A stretch of 64,000 nt of DNA, from contig NW_026250414.1 in assembly GCF_024521635.1 (NCBI RefSeq), positions 806,001-870,000 of the forward strand. Direction: 5' to 3'. A model generated the notes under the pieces. That model searched no databases and was not told the DNA's origin. It saw only the letters and a program-made list of their open reading frames with translations. Shown here piece by piece: positions 1-49,801 of the stretch. A program made the translations under genes and the position numbers. The DNA is from Tricharina praecox (Eukaryota). Position 1 is the first letter of the stretch, and each line of letters begins with the position of its first letter.

Positions 1-279
1 AACTACTCTAGCATCCGTCCTTCCGTCCACAAACAGTTTCGAGATGGGGAGGTGGGGAGGTGGGTACGCGGGTGGGTAGGTAGGTGGGTGGGTAGGCGGG
101 AAACCGGTTTCTGGAATCTGCTGCCTACTTCACCTCCCACAAAGTACTAGTCGTTGCTGTCGCTGTCCCGACTCCCGACTGCTGTCTGCTGCCTTCTTGG
201 GGCGCTCCTGCCTTCCTTCCTTCTTCATTCTCCATGGCGGGGGCGGGGCGGGATGGGGGGTGGGGGGTGGAAGGGGGGG

Positions 280-35047: not shown

Positions 35048-36252
35048 ATGGGTTTCACTGATCTCGCTGCCGAGGCTGGCCTCTCTGGTAGGCTTCCCCG
35101 ATGCGCAGGCGGGATGGGGTCCGAGGATGGTTATGACTGACGGGTCCTCGTTATGCAGCCCTTAACAGCTGGTTGACCACCAGGAGCTACGTCGTTGGGT
35201 GAGTCGCAGCCACTTTCTACTCTGTTTTTTGCTTCACCGATATCCGGCGCACGTTCTGCGTGTATTCTCCCTGGCCTGGATGCGATGGCCCACCTCTGTC
35301 ATCGCTACCTCGATCACATACCCCCCTCCCCCCAATCCCGAAAATGTTTGAATGATGAGATAAAATTGGTCCGTGTTTAAGAGGCGGCTTAAGACCCCGC
35401 TGTTTGACTACAACCCAATAGCTTCATTGCACCTCTGATCCTGCATTTCCTTGCTACTTTATCAATCATCCTCTGCATGCAAGAACTCCGGAAACAGTGA
35501 AGACTGACATTCCCTCCCAGATACACCCCTTCCCAGGGAGATGTGACCATCTACAAGGCTATCTCCAGCGCCCCCGACTCGGCCAAGTACCCCAACGCCG
35601 CGCGCTGGTACAAGAACATCCACTCGTACGAGACCGACTTCGAGACGCTCCCCGGAGAGCAGTCTACCGACATCTCCCAGTACGGACCCGAGGTCGTCGA
35701 GAACACCGTCAACCCTGCCGCCGCCCCCGAGAAGGTCGAGGAGGAAGATGACGATGATGAGGTCGACCTGTTCGGCTCTGACGATGAGGATGAGGACAAG
35801 GAGAAGGAGGCGCTGGCCGCTAAGCGGTTGGAGGAGTACAGGGCCAAGAAGGCGCTGAAGCCCAAGACTAGTGTGTTGCCGCGACCCAAAAGAGGATGCA
35901 TAGTTGTGCAGACGCTGATGAATGGATAGTTGCCAAGTCGGTCGTCACGCTCGATGTCAAGCCGTGGGATGACGAGACAAACATGGACGAGCTGGTTGCC
36001 AACGTCAAGGCCATCGAGAAGGGTTCGTTGCCACATCCTCTCCACATTGTCCCCGCGCACTACTAATACCACGTAGACGGTCTCGTTTGGGGAGCCCACA
36101 CTCTGGTCGCCGTCGGTTACGGTATCAAGAAGCTGCAGATCAACCTTGTCGTCGAGGACGAGAAGATCTCTCTCGACGAGCTGCAGCAGCAGATCGAGGA
36201 GGACGAGGACCACGTCCAGTCCACCGATATCGCCGCAATGCAGAAGTTGTAA
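35048..36252 (+). CDS. EFB1: Translation elongation factor 1-beta; introns 35088-35158, 35199-35520, 35871-35929, 36023-36076
   Basis: [79 protein letters not shown]. Confidence 0.97.
35348..35441 (+). ncRNA. snR18: Box C/D snoRNA U18/snR18 in EF-1beta intron 2
   Basis: Box C ATGATGA 35352-35358; guide TTGGTCCGTGTTT 35366-35378 complementary to LSU rRNA AAACACGGACCAA; D' variant AAGA; box D CTGA 35435-35438. Yeast snR18 lies in the EFB1 intron. Confidence 0.88.
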
Positions 36253-36645
36253 ACTGTCCGCGGGTAGCGAATGAGGTACATGATTTGGGATTGGTTGGGG
36301 CTTCTTGAACGGCGCAAAATAATGATCGCGGCTTGAAGGGGGAAATTTGGGAAAAAGTTAGAATCGGGTGACCTTTTTTCTCCCTACTTACGTACTGTGG
36401 TCGTGTGCTGGGCTCTATGAAACCGAATCGCGAAACAACGTGAAGCCTTGTAACTACACCCTCACGATCTCCTAGTTCTAGGCAATCGCACCGCCATCTT
36501 TCCAACATCCGAATCTCAAGTAAGGTACTGTAGTGGTTCACCCCAACACAAAACTAGTCTACCATGTTGACGTCTCCCACCTAAACTATGACCCTAGATC
36601 CCCCTCCGCGATTTCGTTTCATTCACAGTTCATCACCCCCACTAA

Positions 36646-38145: not shown

Positions 38146-38591
38146 CTACTTCTCCACCGCGCTCTCCTTCCTGGAACTCCTCACATCCCAGAACCCACCT
38201 CCAACACCCGCGCCATCCAGCTGCGCCCACGTCCCCGCGCCCCGCTCGCGCTCCAGCTTTCCCGCCCACACGCGCAACTGTATTGGCCGCAGCTCGCCGG
38301 CGTAGCGTACGACAATCCCGAAACACAGGAGGACTGCGGCTAGCAGCGTTTCTAGCGCTATGTCCGTCGGGATGGCCGTAGAGGTGGTGGTCGTGGTGAG
38401 CGTGGTGGAGTGCTCGTGCGCTGAGTAGACACTGCAGTTTGCTTGGGTTAGTGATGATGATCGGGAAGCGGAGGTGGGAGGGAGGGGGACGGGGACGGGG
38501 GACGGGGGACGGGGGACGGGGGACGGGGGATGTACGAGTGCGTGAATAGGAGGGCCGCGGTGGCGATGAGGAGTGTTGTTGTGACTGTCAT
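38146..38591 (-). CDS. EMC5: ER membrane complex subunit 5 / MMgT family; intron 38535-38432
   Basis: Spliced: MTVTTTLLIATAALLFTHSVYSAHEH...IPTDIALETLLAAVLLCFGIV...LRPIQLRVWAGKLERE; missed by the ORF track. Confidence 0.85.
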
Positions 38592-41500: not shown

Positions 41501-41710
41501 TGTTGGCAAACCAGAGGGCTGGCGGTCCGCTGCTGCTGCGGCATACGATGGGAATGAACCGTCCCCACACCGATCTACAACCTTCCCCGCTCTTGATGTT
41601 TTCTTGCGGTGTCCCTCTGATTGATCGTCATAACCCCCAAAAACAAAGTCAAGTTCACGTCTTCGATATCTCTTGGACAAACAAACGAAAAATCTATTCA
41701 TCCAACGGTT

Positions 41711-44700
41711 ATGGATTGCTTCCACATCGTCCTCCAAAATGGCCTATCCAGTATTCGGTACAATCGTAGCCTCCATGCTAAAATCTCATCCCACGCTGCA
41801 CGGATAGGCACTTTCCTGGCCGACGAGTCGGCCCGAACTGATTTCCTCACCGATTTCAACGATTATACAAGCCACCTGTTGGACTTCCTCGCGTTCAACG
41901 AGAAAATGCACGCCGAACTCGGCCGTCGTACGGGCTCGCAGAGCATATCACGTGAGGTGCTCGAGTTGGTCTGTTCTATGCTTTCGTACCCCGAGTTTGA
42001 TCTTGCAGACGCGGATACGATGGACAAGTTGGTCGTTGAGGCCCTCAAACATGCCTTACCGTTGCAGCCCGCTGCACTTAAGGAGCTCGCCACCAAGTTG
42101 GCCGAGAAACCGGGGCTTCTGGAACGCGTTGCGTCGGCGCAAGAAGGAGCGGAAGCTATCCGCAGCCTCTTCTCGGTGCATTTTGTCAACTCCATGCCGT
42201 CGATATCCAATGCTTGGGCGCAGAAGTTGGTTGGCCTGTGTTCCGTCTGCACCGGAAGCCCCATCTGCCACGGAATCGCGACTGAGGTCGAGAAGTGGCG
42301 TGCGTTGACGGAAATCATCGCGGCGCTAGAAACTCATCAACGTGAGATACAGGAAGCCCCGCAGCCGCATTACGCTCGAGCTCCTACCGCCGCGGTGGTG
42401 ATCCGGAGGCTTGATGCAGATGAAAAGAGGTCGTTTTCTGCGGCCAGGAGAAGATCTTCGGTCCTCGAGCCCGAAATCCCGCCGCTCCCGGAACGCGTGG
42501 CGATGATGCTGGATGGACTGCACCTGCAACAGCCAAGGTCCTCGCGCGCCATAGCGGTGCTCTTGGAGCAGGTGCGCGGCGTCGAGATGCCCGCCATCGT
42601 TCAGGCGCTTCTACCGACGTTTCCATGCCGTCCGTGTTATGATCTCTCCAAGGATCCGAAAGCATTGGTGGAGAAGGATAAGCGGATCATGAGAGCCCGT
42701 GCTGACAGTGGATTCTGCTTCGAAAACCCTACAAAAGAGGAGACATTGTTTGGGGAAATGATTGGGCTATGGAAGGTGCTGCTGTCTGCGGCAGCACTTA
42801 AAGATATTCAGAAGCAGATGCTCGGTGGTGTGTGATCCCCTTTCTATTCCTGGGGGGTATCATAGCAGAACTGATGAACTTTTGGATAGGTCACAAGGAG
42901 GTACTTGAAGCCCGACTGCGCATATTGGCTTCCGGAGAGTGGAAGACTGGAAAGCTTTCGAATCTCCCAGGGACCCCCGCTCAGCGGAAATACCTTGATC
43001 CACCACTTCTGGAGGCCGAGGTTGGAAGGCAGCTTCGAATACTTTGGCAGGTGGGTTCCGGGCCAACCGAGGACGGCGGATACAAGCAGCATATCAAGAG
43101 TTCGTAACCCCACTTTTTGCCTCCGGCCAGATGATAGAATAGCTAAGTGGTGTATCTTAGTTTGGAGGGTCGTTAAACCTGTGGATGTAAGATATTAAAC
43201 CCTCAAGTCTTCAAACGGGGTAACTGACGAAATCTTAGGTTTCCAAAGCCATCGACCATGTGGTCATGGTGTGGAGAACGAGGATTCTACAGCCCGAAGA
43301 TGACCCGATCTTGTCGAAGTTTCCTACGTTGGACGAAGCATCCGGCATTTACATACCCATAGAATTGCCTATTCTATACAACTCGCAGAGAAGGCCTTCA
43401 ATCGATACCTACCCATCGATCTCGATTGATGACCGGAGAGGACTCGAAGACTACAGTCAGTCCATACTATCCGCTTGGGATGTTTTGATTCTGACATCCG
43501 TGGCAGACAAATTCTTCGAGTTCACAAAGCCGGTCATGGACAGTTTTCTGACAAACAGTGCGGACGCCGAATTTCCGTTTGATACATCTCCGGAGGAAAT
43601 CGAGGTCATCAAGCACAGAGATTCCGGGACGCTCATCATGGGCCGAAGCGGAACAGGAAAAACGACCTGCCTAGTTCAGAAGCTGGTACGGAATTACACG
43701 GCTCGGAAGCTCATTATCGGGCAAGCCCCACCTCGGCAGGTGAGTCGAACGGTTTCTCTAAAGTGTCCATCATTGCTGATTCGGATACGACGCATAGATT
43801 CTCCTCACCCGCTCAAAGCTTCTCGTCGAGAAGCTTAAGATATACACGAAGCGGCTGGTCGAATCACAGCTCTCCAAGGCGATCACAACGCAGGCCCAAT
43901 CCGACGATTTTACCTTGGACGAGGAGAGTGTGATGTTTTCCAAGACGATTGGTAGTCTTGGGGATGATGATTTCCCTTTGGTGTGCACATTCGATCAGCT
44001 ATTGAGATTGCTGTAAGCTATCTAGTCTTTTCTCCTGTCGGCAATGAACTCGGGCTAATACTTTCCTCCAGTGAGAATACAGTAGAGTTCGTGCACTCTG
44101 CTCCTTTCCGGGAGATGCCCTTGCTTACTTTCGTCCTTTGCGCAGATTCTCCAATCGTCAGAAGTTTCGCGAAGACAAAGCTAAACCGGAGATTTCCGAT
44201 GTGGCCGGACACTATGTGCGGAGATCGCAAGTCGTTGACTTTAAACTTTTCAAGTCCGAGTACTGGGGACAGTTCCCGTCCAGCTTTTCTCGGCACTATG
44301 AGCCTGGGCTGGTTTTCGCCGAGATCTTGGGAGTGATCAAAGGATCGATATCCAATGACGGCGAGCTCGGATGTCTTTCACGTCACGAATACCTTGCCCT
44401 CAGCCGCAAGAAGGCACCTACATTCTCGCCCGAGGAACGAGAAGATGTCTATGACATCTACCTGCGATACGAAAGCAAGAAAGCCCGACACGGGGATCGG
44501 GACGGGATAGACCGGGTGGCCTCGCTGCTCAAGTTCCTACAGACGGCGGAACCGGATTTCAAGCGGACGATGGAAACCTTCTTCGAGGAGATCTATGTTG
44601 ACGAGGTGCAGGATCAGCGATGCATAGACATCACCTTACTCCTCAAGCTCGCTAAGAACCCGACTGGAGTCCACTTCGCGGGTGACTCGGCGCAATGCAT

Positions 44701-47700
44701 CTCGAGGGACTCGACGTTCCGCTTCAGCGATGTCAAGGCTATGTTTTACAATCAGTTCAAGCCGCTGGCTGAGGCGACAAACAATGACAGTCTCGTCCAT
44801 CCAAAGTTGTTCCGGCTCAATAAGAACTTCAGATCTCACCAGGGAATCATTTCCCTCGCTTCGTTCGTTATGGAGCTGTTGTACAAAGGTGCGTCACAGT
44901 AGTCAGGGGCTTTTGCTTCTTCACTGTTTCTCTGTGTTTCATTGGATTGAGGTTTTTTTTTTCTTTTTTCAATCGCATGGTTTTTGTGGCGCGCGACTAC
45001 CACGAGTGACATAATGTGATGCCAATGCTGATATCTTTAGGTTTCCCCCAAACGGTCGACAGAATGGAAGAAGAAAGGGGCCAATACGATGGTTCCATAC
45101 CCACCATGTTCGTTGGCTTGGGTTCGGAAGTGCTTGCGCAGCGACTTGTCGGCCTGGCCGGTGTGTTTGAGAAAGTGTCGGATTTCGGAGCAGAACAGGT
45201 TATCCTCGTTCGAGACGACAGCATAAAGAAAGTAGTCGAGCGCACGCTCGGCGAAGACACAGCGCTGGTGCTCAGCATTCTTGACAGCAAGGGTATGGAG
45301 TTTGACGACGTGTTCCTGCTCGACTTTTTCTCTTCCAGCCCTACTCAGGCCGGATTGAGAACCTTGAAGGATATTCTGGTTCCCGGCAGTAACCGGGCGG
45401 AGAACGAGAGGAACGCACTGCTTTGCTCCGAGCTCAAGGTATGGACCCGGTTGTGACTTACTATAGAGTCAATACTGATCTGTGACCTTTCTCAGCATCT
45501 TTACGTTGCAATCACAAGACCTCGGATTCAGCTATGGATCCTCGAAAGCTCCCCCGAAGCCGCGGAGCCTATCGTCAAGTTATTAGCGAGGGACGGCGCG
45601 AAGCCACTCGTGGATGTTGTGCGGAGAAATGATCCAGACGTGAAGGAAAAGCTGAAGATGATGAAGCCTGCGGTTTCGAGTGATCCCAAAAAGTTTTCCG
45701 AGAAAGGTTACCAGTTTCTGCAAAGAGGATTATACAAAGAGGTATGAAAGTAGATAGAATTCCAACATATTTGCTGAGTCCTTAATTAATGCCGGTACGG
45801 TAGGCAAGCTTTTGCTTCCGCAGGGCAAAGGACGAGCGGGGACAAACCATCTCCAGAGCACATCTGAAGATGGAGGAGGGACGAATTCATCGAGGAGAGG
45901 GCGCTACCAACAAGTTCCTTGAGCTCTTTAGGGAGGCTGTAAAGCTTTTCCGAGAGGCTTCACAGTTAGGAAATGCCGCTTTTTGTCTTGAAGATATGAG
46001 CTACATCGAGGAAGCAGGAGGTGGGGTTCTACCGCTTACTAGCTCCTCCGTGGTCTGAAAAAAACTAATCGGTGTTGCAGACGTTTGGGTTGAAATTGGA
46101 CGCCACGACAAGGCGGCTTCACTGTACAAGAAATGCCGAGCATGGCGTAAAGCGTTTCAGTGCTACGATACGCTCGGATCCTATGCCGAAGCGGCGGCAG
46201 CGCTCCGTCAGGGAGAGCTATTCAACACACTCATTCGGTATCTCCGAGCCAATCGAGAACACCTGGAGCCATCGCAGGTGGCTGCGTACAGCAAGCTTTG
46301 CACTATTCTCTTGGCCCAAGGTCGGATAAAAGAGGACCACCAGGAATTCGTTATCGACTCCCTCGGGTCCGATCGAGAAAAGGAGGAATTCTTACGCAAG
46401 TTTCGCCTCGGGAAACAACTGGTCAAAGTCCTAGTCAAGACCCAGAATTACGGAGAGGCATTCCGCGAGCACATATCAGACGGCAGAATTGCAGATGCGT
46501 TGGAACTGGGGTTGAAGCATTTCCACAACTATTCAAGTATTGAATTGAAGGATCTTATGCAGCCTTTACGCTTCACAGAATTCGAACGGTTTCTTAATTT
46601 ATTGCACCGAGAACCCGGCGAGGAGGCACAATCTCGGCCGTACGATATGTTGCCGGAACTTCCCTGGTCTATTACTAATGCACTATCGGAATGGGCTTCC
46701 TTACGTGAGAAACTTCGTATTAGCACCTTGTGGGGCGTCTTCTCCAGCCTGGACGACGGCCTTCAAAAGGATATACTTGCCATCTTAGTTGGTCATCCTT
46801 CATCTCATCATGTTCATCTACTGACGCGATATTGCCAGATGGTTGTTAACTGGCGCGAGTTGGACTTGTTGCGAGGCTGTGAAGATCTCGCTCTTACTGA
46901 CCTGCGCGGGGTTGTCCAAGCCTTAATTACGACGGTCAATATCTGGGGATCAAATCGAGGCGAGAATCACGAACTTCCGCTGTCCACCGCGATTGTCATG
47001 GGTGCTTTCCCCATTCCGGATAAGCAGGAGACATGGCTCTTGCAGTATTCCCCCCTTCAAAAAGGCACGCCGGGTCCGTCACTCCACAAGTCGGAGGATC
47101 TTTCAAACAGAATCCAGAATGAAATTCTGCTGCGGATGTTGGAACTCTTCCGACGTCTGGAACAAGTTGCGAGGAATATATGGGAGCCGTTCTCCAAGGA
47201 TCTCTGCACCAAGCACATATCGAGAGGTTTGTTCTTCTACAGTCGGTCGCAGAATCTTCAAAGCTCACACTTGGCTTAGGAAATTGCGAAAGCGGGGCCC
47301 TTTGCTATAAAAGACATGTTCCGCCGAGCAGTGTGGAATGCAAGTCCAGAATCGAGGTATGAATCGCGGTCTCGATGGAAATTAACAGATGCGCTGAGCT
47401 AATGCGATTCTTTAAAAGGGTCTGCAAATGATGTCTTCCTTGGTTTGCAGCTTCCGTATGGTATATTTCCGGACCAAAAAATACAGGATGACTGGCAACG
47501 AAGAAGTCCTAACACTTTTCAGCAAGAACCATCTTCCAACCAGTCAGTTAATACTTTTTTTTTTTTTTTTTTTTCTTTTTGGGGGGGGGGGGGGGGGGGG
47601 GGGGTTCTGAGAAACTCTGACGAGTCTTAGAGCGCTATTGGCTGGAGTCTCTATTGCAGGAGACAATATTTAGATCAGCCATTCAACACGATTGCGACGC

Positions 47701-49801
47701 GACAAAAAACGCAATGTCCAACATCGCATCAGGGGGAAGAGAATATACGGCAATATTTGTTGGCGTCGAGGAATTGCTGTTTCATCGTTTGCGGAAGGAT
47801 AGGGAGTGGTACCTGAGGAATGACCTATCCTCAATTTTGGAGCAACGACAACTCTGCGAAAGTCTCGGTATGTGGTCCCTTCTCGACGATGCCCCGCTCG
47901 CAGAGAATGTATCATAAGAACATATGTTACGCAACGATGAGATTAGGCAACATGTCACATGTGCAGTCTATTGAAAATATGTTACTTTAATGGACGGGGT
48001 TGAGCTAACCGAGATAATTGATATTAGGCGAGAGAGTCGCAAAGCGATTTGAGACATACACAAAGCTGATACGCTATAGGTCGGATGTGCGTGTCAAATT
48101 GGATCCGCAACAGATAAATCAGAATGCAGTGTACGACGCATACCAAAGCCTCAAGGATGCAATCTTTAATGCCAAGCGCAACGAGGCCCATGGCGCTGTA
48201 AGTCACAAATATAGCATTCTTCATGCACATCGCTGATTCTGAATAGAAACTCAACTTGAGCTTGGGCCTGGGAAAACTCGAAACCCTCTCTGTGAATGAC
48301 TTTACCTGCTTCCACTCTATCATTGGAATGTTTGAGCGGCTAGCAGCTTTTCTAGTAGGCCCAGCACTCGAAAACTGACTATAACCGACATGGCTGATTG
48401 AAGCAGATGCTATGGACCTGCCAGTCTGCATGCGTTCTCCCGGCTTCATGGATCAAGATTCACCTGCCCGTCCTCATAACCCATCCGCATCAGCTCACGC
48501 GGGGACAACCAGGACGGGGAATCTATGGAGAATGCCTGGTTGAATTGCTCATATCTCTCATCAAATTGATAGAGCGCCTACAACTAGAGGATTCGTTCTA
48601 CTTCTCGTACGGCACCCGAAGATATATCAAGGCCGAAGCGTTTGGGCAAGGAATCCAAGAACGAAATCGGAACCTTCTTGCTATTGCAGTCTTCCATCTT
48701 GCGACTATGGAGGCTCCACCCCCACACTCGGCCGATGTCATCAGGGGAGTGCAGAAGGTATGGCGGATCTCCGCAACTACTATCATGCTAGGTTAGTGGA
48801 GTTGACGAGATCAATAGCTTTTCTGGAATCGCAATCTCTTCGCCGCCGACTTTCAAAATCGTCCACCGATCTCCATGCTTGAACCACTGCATTCGTCGTT
48901 CGCGCGATATGGAGGCAAAGACAGTTTAGTCATCGTCACAATCAAAGAGAAAGTTCCGCCCGCCGCTTTCAACCCCCTGATCATTCGCAAAGTTCCTACG
49001 TCCACTCTCGCCTCGCTGATCGAGTCTAGGAAGTCGCAGCCGGTAACTTCGGGACGCCAGGCCGGAGATTCCGACGAGAAATGGGAGGATGCAGCGGTTA
49101 GGAAAGCAGTGAGGAAGCTGCAGGCGTTTTGGCGCAGACGTCGCCCGTTCCTGCATTCGTACCGAGCGTCGCTCGAGCGCCCACGCGGCGAGGAATCCGC
49201 TTTTGTCTTCGAGAATATCATCAAGCCCAGCCTCAGAGCCATCCGCGATGCGCAACTGCAGGAGCTCAAACTCGCACGCACGAGAGAGCTGCATGAGCAC
49301 TCGTCCGAGGATGAGGATGAGGATGAGGATGAGGATGAGGATGAGGATGAGGATGAGGATGAGGATGAGGAGGAGCAAGGCAAAGCCGATATGGAAGAAC
49401 CCTCCCTGCCAGTGTCTCGCTTCGTACCGAGAATGCTTTGCAAGACCTTGATCCTCGATACCGTTGGCATCGACTTCTACGTCGCAGTTGGGACGCTCCG
49501 CGGTGAAGCCGAAGCCGCGAATGCGCTCTCCCTAGGCGTCCTTACAAACAACAGGATGCAGACATCCGCCGTCGAGGAGCTGATCGAAAGCGACGACATG
49601 GCGGAGTTGAACAGAATCGTTAAGATAGTTTCCGGCGAGATGCTGGGAGTGGAGAAGGTTGGGAAGATGTATGCCGACCCGCAGCGGCATTGGCGGGACC
49701 TGAGACGGGCGTTTGCCAAGGAGATGGAGGAACTCGAGAAAATGCGGGTCAGATTGATGGGGATCGTGCAAACGCTTGAGAGGATGTTGGCTGGGTTGTG
49801 A
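41711..49801 (+). CDS. TRANK1-like SF1 (UvrD-type) helicase with TPR-like repeats, CCCH finger and IQ-like motif; ~17 introns; start codon uncertain
   Basis: Walker A GRSGTGKT, TFDQLL, Walker B IYVDEVQD, AGDSAQCI, LNKNFRSHQGI, SKGMEFDDV, LYVAITRPR; helical repeats downstream. Canonical introns (e.g. 42828-42889, 43100-43160, 43187-43238, 43740-43797, 44889-45040, 45439-45495, 47227-47279) preserve the frame to TGA 49799-49801. Confidence 0.85.
49307..49369 (+). repeat. (GAGGAT)n encoding a poly-(Glu-Asp) tract in the helicase C-terminus
   Basis: Direct reading, ~10 copies. Confidence 0.9.

Follow-up and report, generated by a model that had tools for sequence, protein, structure and literature searches.

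An important question raised by a 64,000-nt stretch of the Tricharina praecox genome (contig NW_026250414.1, positions 806,001 to 870,000, forward strand; hereafter the window) is whether a eukaryotic protein can carry a domain with the fold of the RelE and ParE toxins and, if so, whether such a domain would still cut RNA. The gene concerned (41711..49801, +, start codon assumed) is intron-rich and encodes a UvrD-type, superfamily 1 (SF1) helicase with tetratricopeptide repeats (TPRs). The original prediction, made from the sequence alone, had proposed that a RelE-superfamily domain, split over three exons, lies just before this helicase. Indeed, the RelE-like domain holds a constant place on the N-terminal side of the helicase in a eukaryotic UvrD-type helicase–TPR–CCCH protein, an answer that draws on the observed splicing of the gene, the fold of homologous domains, their fixed position before the helicase and the intact ATPase motifs.

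The splicing was resolved by scoring stop-free donor and acceptor alternatives against two annotated homologues and by comparison with assembled contigs of two out of three runs (X1 and X2; two samples from two studies). Although these runs are listed as 'RNA?', their contigs lack the GT..AG introns and thus represent spliced molecules. The third run, X3, had no coverage here, which does not count against splicing. The two introns named in the original prediction (42828..42889, 62 nt, and 43100..43160, 61 nt, both + and GT..AG) ranked first among 35 and 17 alternatives, respectively, and are spliced out in contigs of both runs, with the quoted peptide in a single open frame; splicing that would put these exons in another frame was not found. 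A third intron, unnamed at that time (43187..43238, +, 52 nt), was the best of 8 alternatives, and both this and a further intron at 43456-43506 are likewise absent from the X1 and X2 contigs. Shifted splice sites were rejected by homologue scoring and by the transcript contigs, and skipping of the 26-nt exon was rejected as well (score 608 vs 741 for inclusion). Moreover, the domain aligns unbroken over the first two introns with the Wilcoxina and Sphaerosporella proteins. The three-exon split was hence correct as to its introns and incomplete as to its extent: the C-terminal helix of the domain runs into a fourth exon (to ~43290), so that the RelE-like unit is spread over four exons. At the level of the whole gene, a single spliced contig of 6,401 nt (run X1) spans 41627-49298, and the spliced model contains no stop over at least 1,590 aa. 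The alignment with homologue P0004 begins at residue 1 of that protein and at window position 41711, the C-terminal exons match homologue P0231 through to its end, and the closest annotated homologues are 2,117-2,244 aa long. The closest named ones come from Pyronemataceae-type Pezizales (Sphaerosporella, Wilcoxina, Trichophaea), and at least one such locus was found in the genome of the window. An in-frame six-base tandem repeat encoding a Glu-Asp run is present in the last exon (49299-49385, +), where the RNA contigs break.

The fold searches were performed with AlphaFold models of two homologues. Model 1 is a Wilcoxina domain, 56% identical to the window segment (predicted local distance difference test, pLDDT, 86.5), and model 2 is a basidiomycete domain (pLDDT 82.7) built on a separate alignment, A2, which does not overlap that of model 1. 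The best match of model 1 was YafQ (Z 10.1, root-mean-square deviation (rmsd) 2.2 Å, 87 aligned residues), with the first unrelated row at Z 5.8, and the best row of model 2 reached Z 11.5 (rmsd 2.1 Å, 98 aligned), with YoeB at Z 10.7 and YafQ at Z 10.5. The top 24 rows of both wide searches were toxin-antitoxin toxins or Cami1; 20 of them are titled RelE, YoeB, YafQ, HigB, ParE, PfiT or Cami1, and the remaining four we take to be toxins as well. A Foldseek comparison, which the original prediction had suggested, was run on the homologue models and pointed in the same direction: model 2 gave 14 matches at E≤0.001, those listed all being RelE/YoeB/YafQ/ParE-type toxin entries, and model 1 agreed, but with a best E of only 4.9e-3. 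The order of elements in both models, E-H-H-E-E-E-H, fits the strand-helix-helix-meander definition of the RelE/ParE (BECR) fold. With YafQ, YoeB, RelE, HigB, ParE and Cami1 matched before any unrelated fold, the window segment is, as predicted from its modelled homologues, a true RelE/ParE-superfamily (BECR-fold) domain.

At the sequence level, Pfam holds no family over the domain (window exon frames; 21 + 20 homologues). None of the 30 members of profile A1, built from 30 of an initial 36 near-full segments, and none of 23 A2 members reached a Pfam or NCBIfam cut-off, and neither profile had a match among PDB sequences at E≤10. Below threshold, TIGR02385 appeared in 2 of the 23 A2 members (E 0.02, 15.4 bits vs a cut-off of 27.9) and ParE_toxin PF05016 in one (E 0.016). 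The ESM Atlas yielded no more than leads (a mostly plant cluster without a name at 0.91, a ParE-like one at 0.85; elsewhere ParE-like, YhaV and ParE clusters at 0.81-0.83), and three BFVD matches at E≤0.001 were all unnamed. The empty result at cut-off, the modest Foldseek value of model 1 and the Z of 8-10 that ParE entries also attain would suit a chance likeness of small alpha/beta domains, or a ParE-like action on topoisomerase. However, two models from non-overlapping alignments agreed in their first 24 rows, with unrelated folds far lower, the sub-threshold sequence matches also point to RelE, and 17 of the 141 family domains have a set of RNase-type residues in register (see below), leaving this explanation highly improbable.

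The predicted location was confirmed, as the domain lies about 100 aa ahead of Walker A in an intact UvrD-type helicase–TPR protein, and this arrangement is common to the family. Profile A1 found 381 cluster representatives at E≤0.001, the best 150 of which were returned; a Walker A motif follows the domain in 111 of 130 near-full matches, with a median spacing of 98 aa and a range of 92-109 aa in most of the 111, and most of the remaining 19 matches are fragments. The domain is 49-71% identical to six close homologues; the corresponding values are 23-50% in the N-terminal region and 57-84% in the helicase parts, and the RelE-like domain thus remains under constraint. Its most conserved residues are Trp354, Gly388, Trp425, Gln426, Gln439 and Trp444. 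The taxonomic range was sampled mainly in fungi and barely outside them, where a Dunaliella protein holds the domain between Upf1-like and UvrD helicases (E 8e-5 with A2). In protein P0221, ankyrin repeats are followed by a domain with Glu, Arg and His and then by the start of a P-loop. Phage records yielded two weak helicase-motif matches, and none of 21 pattern matches in prokaryotic genomes was confirmed by a scan reaching close relatives only; PADLOC, run on eight proteins, matched nothing beyond the helicase parts (GajB, MkoA).

The RelE-like segment comprises 96 aa (residues 354-449), and its C-terminal helix extends to ~aa 468. The first exon piece (42764..42827, +; aa 352-372) encodes strand 1 with Trp354 and helix 1 with Lys364 at the RelE K13 site. 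The second (42890..43099, +) covers helix 2, a loop, strands 2 and 3 and the start of strand 4; it contains Arg381 at the RelE K29 site, Glu414 at K52, Glu416 at K54, Arg422 at R61 (43036-43038) in strand 3 together with the family-invariant Trp425-Gln426, and Gln439 and Lys442 in strand 4. The 26-nt exon (43161..43186, +) completes strand 4 with Trp444 and places Pro449 (43178-43180) in the general-acid position, and the following exon piece (43239..43289, +; aa 452-468, helix 107-124 in the homologue model) encodes the C-terminal helix with Ala455 at the RelE Y87 site. In the structural search, this helix was paired with its counterparts at the C-termini of Cami1 and HigB-type toxins.

The comparison toxins RelE, YafQ and YoeB were taken from the annotated genome of E. 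coli. Their active sites comprise K52, K54, R61, R81 and Y87 in RelE, H50, H63, D67 and H87 in YafQ, and E46, R65 and H83 in YoeB (PMC4652777; here and below, published sources are cited for the accessible part of their text). Residues E56, R67, R71 and H86 of RNase Sa2 superpose on RelE K52, K54, R61 and R81, and RelE K29 contacts 16S rRNA (PMC2807027). The five RelE positions are occupied in the window copy by Glu414, Glu416, Arg422, Pro449 and Ala455, so that one of the five RelE residues is kept; a canonical RelE active site is excluded for this copy by Glu416, Pro449 and Ala455. The window copy also differs from the YoeB/YafQ or RNase Sa/T1 type, having Glu and Arg, with Pro in place of His. 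The register of Pro449 at the general-acid site (RelE R81, YafQ H87, YoeB H83) was read from the range ends of structural alignments. The toxin or RNase activity implied by the original prediction is therefore unsupported for the window copy, given the residues at its R81, K54 and Y87 sites. As for the arginine of the RILW motif, which had been singled out for mutation, it does align with RelE R61, albeit without being invariant in the family (47/141).

The residue set that is incomplete here is found in full in some relatives. The counts refer to 141 near-full domains out of 196 proteins with a match, partial domains being dropped. Glu occupies the K52 site in 38, Arg the R61 site in 47 and His the R81 site in 20 of the 141; all three occur together in 17, with 1.8 expected if they were independent (the rows are related, and no probability is attached). 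Lys or Arg at the K54 site accompanies this set in 15 of the 17, and 54 domains have none of the four residues. Within the 17, the pairwise identity is 19-78% (median 38%). The Glu-Arg-His set in these relatives would correspond to the RNase Sa/T1-type set, as judged from aligned residues. Its named carriers are Dinochytrium, Cladochytrium, Nowakowskiella, Entophlyctis, Zopfochytrium, Blyttiomyces, Jimgerdemannia and Rhizoctonia, presumably mostly chytrids with a mucoromycete and a basidiomycete, and Astraeus and one Kalaharituber protein have Arg + His. The aligned ranges of model 2 (12..106 on YoeB 1..84 and 11..110 on YafQ 3..92), if gap-free at their ends, place the basidiomycete His105 on YoeB H83 and YafQ H87. 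The conservation line of A2 itself is circular, because 23 of its 29 rows were selected on the condition that two or more of Glu, Arg and His be present. A tree of the helicase parts (FastTree, midpoint-rooted) was drawn from 91 rows in which both Walker motifs are present. Its non-ascomycete clade shows Glu in 17/22, Lys/Arg at the R61 site in 20/22 and His in 8/22 rows, and the ascomycete clade, so labelled from its named rows, has Glu in 4/67, Arg in 18/67 and His in 1/67. The window copy is, by its residues, apparently like nearly all sampled ascomycete members in having no His.

With Pro449 at the general-acid site, despite Glu414 and Arg422, the window copy is probably an RNase that has been disarmed but continues to bind RNA. 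More precisely, we lean slightly towards a disarmed or weak RNase that would still dock the helicase on RNA or the ribosome. The older form of the family may have been a metal-independent RNase with Glu as the general base, His as the general acid, and Lys/Arg together with Arg stabilizing the transition state. Alternatively, the window domain might still be an active ribosome-dependent mRNA interferase, its site having been rebuilt around Glu414, Arg422, Lys448 or Lys442; the N-terminal region or the long C-terminal helix would then restrain it until a trigger acts on the helicase. Glu414 and Arg422 at the K52 and R61 sites are compatible with this, and in the nearest subclade, Arg is kept at R61 in 8 and at R81 in 6 of the nine closest relatives. 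In addition, the active sites of the RelE family are plastic (PMC4652777), RelE of E. coli also cleaves mRNA on ribosomes of eukaryotes (PMC11980606, PMC2807027), and Cami1 exemplifies a fused RelE domain that reaches the ribosome (entry title 8phj). However, the general-acid position is taken by Pro449, and the K54 and Y87 sites by Glu416 and Ala455, all of which speaks against a working site. The site is drifting, as judged from the nearest homologue, P0231 (helicase identity 77%), in which R61 is matched by His and R81 by Pro, and the above 54 of 141 family domains lack all four residues. We consider retained cutting by the window copy unlikely.

The sites of contact with rRNA bear on whether the domain meets RNA at all. 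The window copy has Lys/Arg at the K13, K17 and K29 sites and neither at R16 nor at K28. Across the 141 domains, Lys/Arg at the K29 site is kept in 101, which favours docking on RNA or ribosomes, as does the net charge of the window domain, +8. The family median of this charge is +3 and its range -11 to +13. This wide range, the absence of the invariant residues (Trp, Gly, Gln) from the catalytic positions of RelE, and the tight spacing to Walker A would fit an ascomycete domain with a purely structural or regulatory function in the helicase, i.e., an intramolecular clamp or a protein-binding surface off RNA; moreover, ParE toxins demonstrate that the fold can work without RNase residues (PMC7180214). 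Nevertheless, the ascomycete-clade rows keep Lys/Arg at the K29 site in 51/67 and at the strand-4 site in 56/67, the window copy is positively charged, and a CCCH finger is present in the same protein. A purely structural role is thus also improbable, to about the same degree as retained cutting.

Several observations weigh against a disarmed, RNA-docking RelE domain derived from a cutting ancestor. Both fold models come from homologues of the window protein. The residue matches rest on very weak sequence alignments (hhalign probability 0.25%; E 3.7) and on range ends; homologue strand 3 was aligned with RelE Y60-V66 at such scores. The most conserved residues lie outside the catalytic sites of RelE and may have a structural role only, and the other rRNA-contact sites are weakly kept (K13 in 70, K28 in 50, R16 in 48 and K17 in 40 of 141). 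An ancestral presence of the His would depend on a midpoint-rooted tree without a proper outgroup, the green-algal member has none of Glu, Arg and His, and arbuscular-mycorrhizal members have no His. Finally, the arginines that most of the nine closest relatives keep at the R61 and R81 sites are those mattering most in RelE, window Lys448 is one position from the R81 site, and with active sites as plastic as these (PMC4652777), loss of His need not mean loss of cutting.

Turning to the remainder of the protein, the N-terminal region (aa 1-351; 41711..42763, +) has no Pfam family and diverges most among the six close homologues. It contains a CxxC at aa 177-180 and another at aa 306-309 (~42620-42640, +), just before the RelE-like domain; a CxxC within 75 aa upstream of the domain was found in 100 of 125 homologues, and these motifs suggest that the region may bind zinc. 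Walker A is intact (aa 569-576; 43641..43664, +), and the helicase core, spread over three exons (44146..45540, +; Pfam UvrD-helicase, PF00580, E 2.5e-9), has Walker B (Asp830 at 44600) and intact motifs III-VI; motifs I, II, III, IV, V and VI start at aa 569, 827, 857, 905, 1009 and 1060, in agreement with an SF1 helicase. Between two 59-nt introns inside the helicase, a 15-nt micro-exon (44072..44086, +) with AG/GT flanks is included in the X1 and X2 contigs. The TPR-like repeat region (45640..46787, +) gave weak TPR matches (best E 0.025); in homologues P0044 and P0151, TPR matches exceed the cut-off. The CCCH-type zinc-finger motif, C-x8-C-x5-C-x3-H (aa 1571-1590; 47205..47317, +), is split by an intron (47227-47279) and had no Pfam match in the window protein, and its pattern was found in 23 of 63 long homologues vs 3 of 1,260 shuffles. 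The neighbouring genes at 38146-38590 (-) and 35050-36310 (+) are presumably those of an EMC5/MMGT1-like small membrane protein and of translation elongation factor 1-beta, respectively.

In such an arrangement, the ATP-driven helicase might feed RNA to the RelE-like domain or bring the domain to ribosomes, the repeat domains might switch the RNase, and the TPRs and the CCCH finger might act as sensors of RNA and partners. The role would most likely be in defence or RNA surveillance, as bacterial analogues and the many paralogues in some Pezizales suggest. Six paralogous proteins were found in Choiromyces venosus (P0047, P0056, P0062, P0064, P0067 and P0081, possibly a cluster), and Kalaharituber and Tuber have several each, vs at least one locus in the genome of the window. 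Variable add-ons, some of which may be gene-model fusions, were seen among P0179, P0246, P0085, P0221, P0116, P0224 and P0205; N-terminally these are NADAR, a WD40 propeller, an Upf1-like helicase or ankyrin repeats, and C-terminally Sel1 repeats, one protein of 4,101 aa having a second P-loop.

Compared with RelE, YoeB, YafQ and HigB, the window domain shares the fold over its whole length (Z 7-11.5), Arg at R61 and part of the basic residues on helices 1 and 2, and some relatives share His at the YafQ H87/YoeB H83 site. In contrast to these toxins, it has longer loops, a long C-terminal helix and only 8-23% identity, its copy in the window has no equivalents of K54, R81 and Y87, and it is an internal part of a ~2,100-aa protein encoded by a long spliced frame, not a stand-alone toxin gene of a type II toxin-antitoxin pair, and no separate antitoxin gene was seen. 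The window protein is therefore not a member of the RelE toxins by active site, profile cut-off or gene structure, yet it is built like one.

The closest architectural counterparts are bacterial. ArmD of ARMADA type II combines a RelE-like domain with a GajB-like UvrD helicase (bioRxiv 10.1101/2025.09.15.676423), and a RelE-helicase is described from Tiamat type I-K neighbourhoods (bioRxiv 10.64898/2026.09.30.754977); both have the RelE-like domain N-terminal to the SF1/UvrD helicase, like the window protein. Walker A of ArmD is required for phage defence, and the accessible text reports no mutation of its RelE domain (bioRxiv 10.1101/2025.09.15.676423). ArmD, however, is 704 aa long, has neither TPR nor CCCH and belongs to the four-gene operon armABCD, whereas the window gene is eukaryotic and outside any operon, so that domain order alone is shared. 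Profiles A1 and A2 did not match the N-terminal domain of ArmD, and BLAST joined ArmD with a family protein around the helicase motifs only (E 1e-4, 23% over ~110 aa), which makes ArmD an architectural analogue. Cami1, a CARF-RelE CRISPR effector, likewise has its RelE domain within a multidomain protein, with an immune role in that case, and matched model 1 at Z 8.9 over 94 residues, the C-terminal helix included. Cami1 is gated by a cyclic-oligoadenylate sensor, while the window protein combines its RelE-like domain with a helicase motor, TPRs and a CCCH finger.

In the literature, a 2025 survey of multidomain RelE/ParE proteins (Gerdes) treats the eukaryotic cases as toxin-antitoxin fusions, and 'helicase' and 'UvrD' are absent from its accessible text (PMC11980606); the accessible parts of PMC2701414, PMC6514570, PMC3710099 and PMC3482391 contain no eukaryotic RelE-helicase fusion. 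A preprint describes human TRANK1/LBA1, a TPR-ankyrin protein, as having no known function (bioRxiv 10.1101/192815). No publication was found that reports a RelE-like domain in a helicase of eukaryotes, nor any joining TRANK1 or fungal helicases to RelE or TRANK1 to UvrD, in searches that were partly swamped and mostly left subscription journals and supplementary alignments outside their coverage. Fusions of RelE/ParE domains to SF-I helicases were reportedly noted by Anantharaman and Aravind in 2003, and part of the present finding may thus have been anticipated. Bacterial RelE-UvrD fusions are already known; the Glu-Arg-His set in 17 of 141 domains is new, and the eukaryotic family appears to be so.

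To our knowledge, RelE-fold RNases have been regarded as prokaryotic, and here the RelE fold, its coding sequence split by introns, belongs permanently to a large family of eukaryotic helicases without a Pfam or NCBIfam model. The window copy is the less exciting, probably disarmed form of it, and the His-bearing relatives are better objects for an RNase test; three candidate catalytic residues make a family annotated only as 'P-loop NTPase' directly testable. TRANK1 is a UvrD-like helicase with ankyrin and TPR repeats, encoded at a psychiatric risk locus. The window helicase may be TRANK1/LBA1-like, and the window protein differs from TRANK1 in showing no ankyrin repeats; if TRANK1 belongs to the family, the same RNase test applies to the human protein. 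Overall, the family might tentatively be seen, with the balance still somewhat against it, as an unrecognized eukaryotic class of helicase-gated RelE RNases, comprising fungi, a green alga, unnamed ankyrin-bearing proteins and, provided the presumed kinship holds, animal TRANK1. Such an innate-immune or surveillance machine would sense foreign or stalled RNA with its SF1 motor and release a RelE-fold domain to cleave mRNA on the ribosome, most ascomycete copies having become non-cutting.

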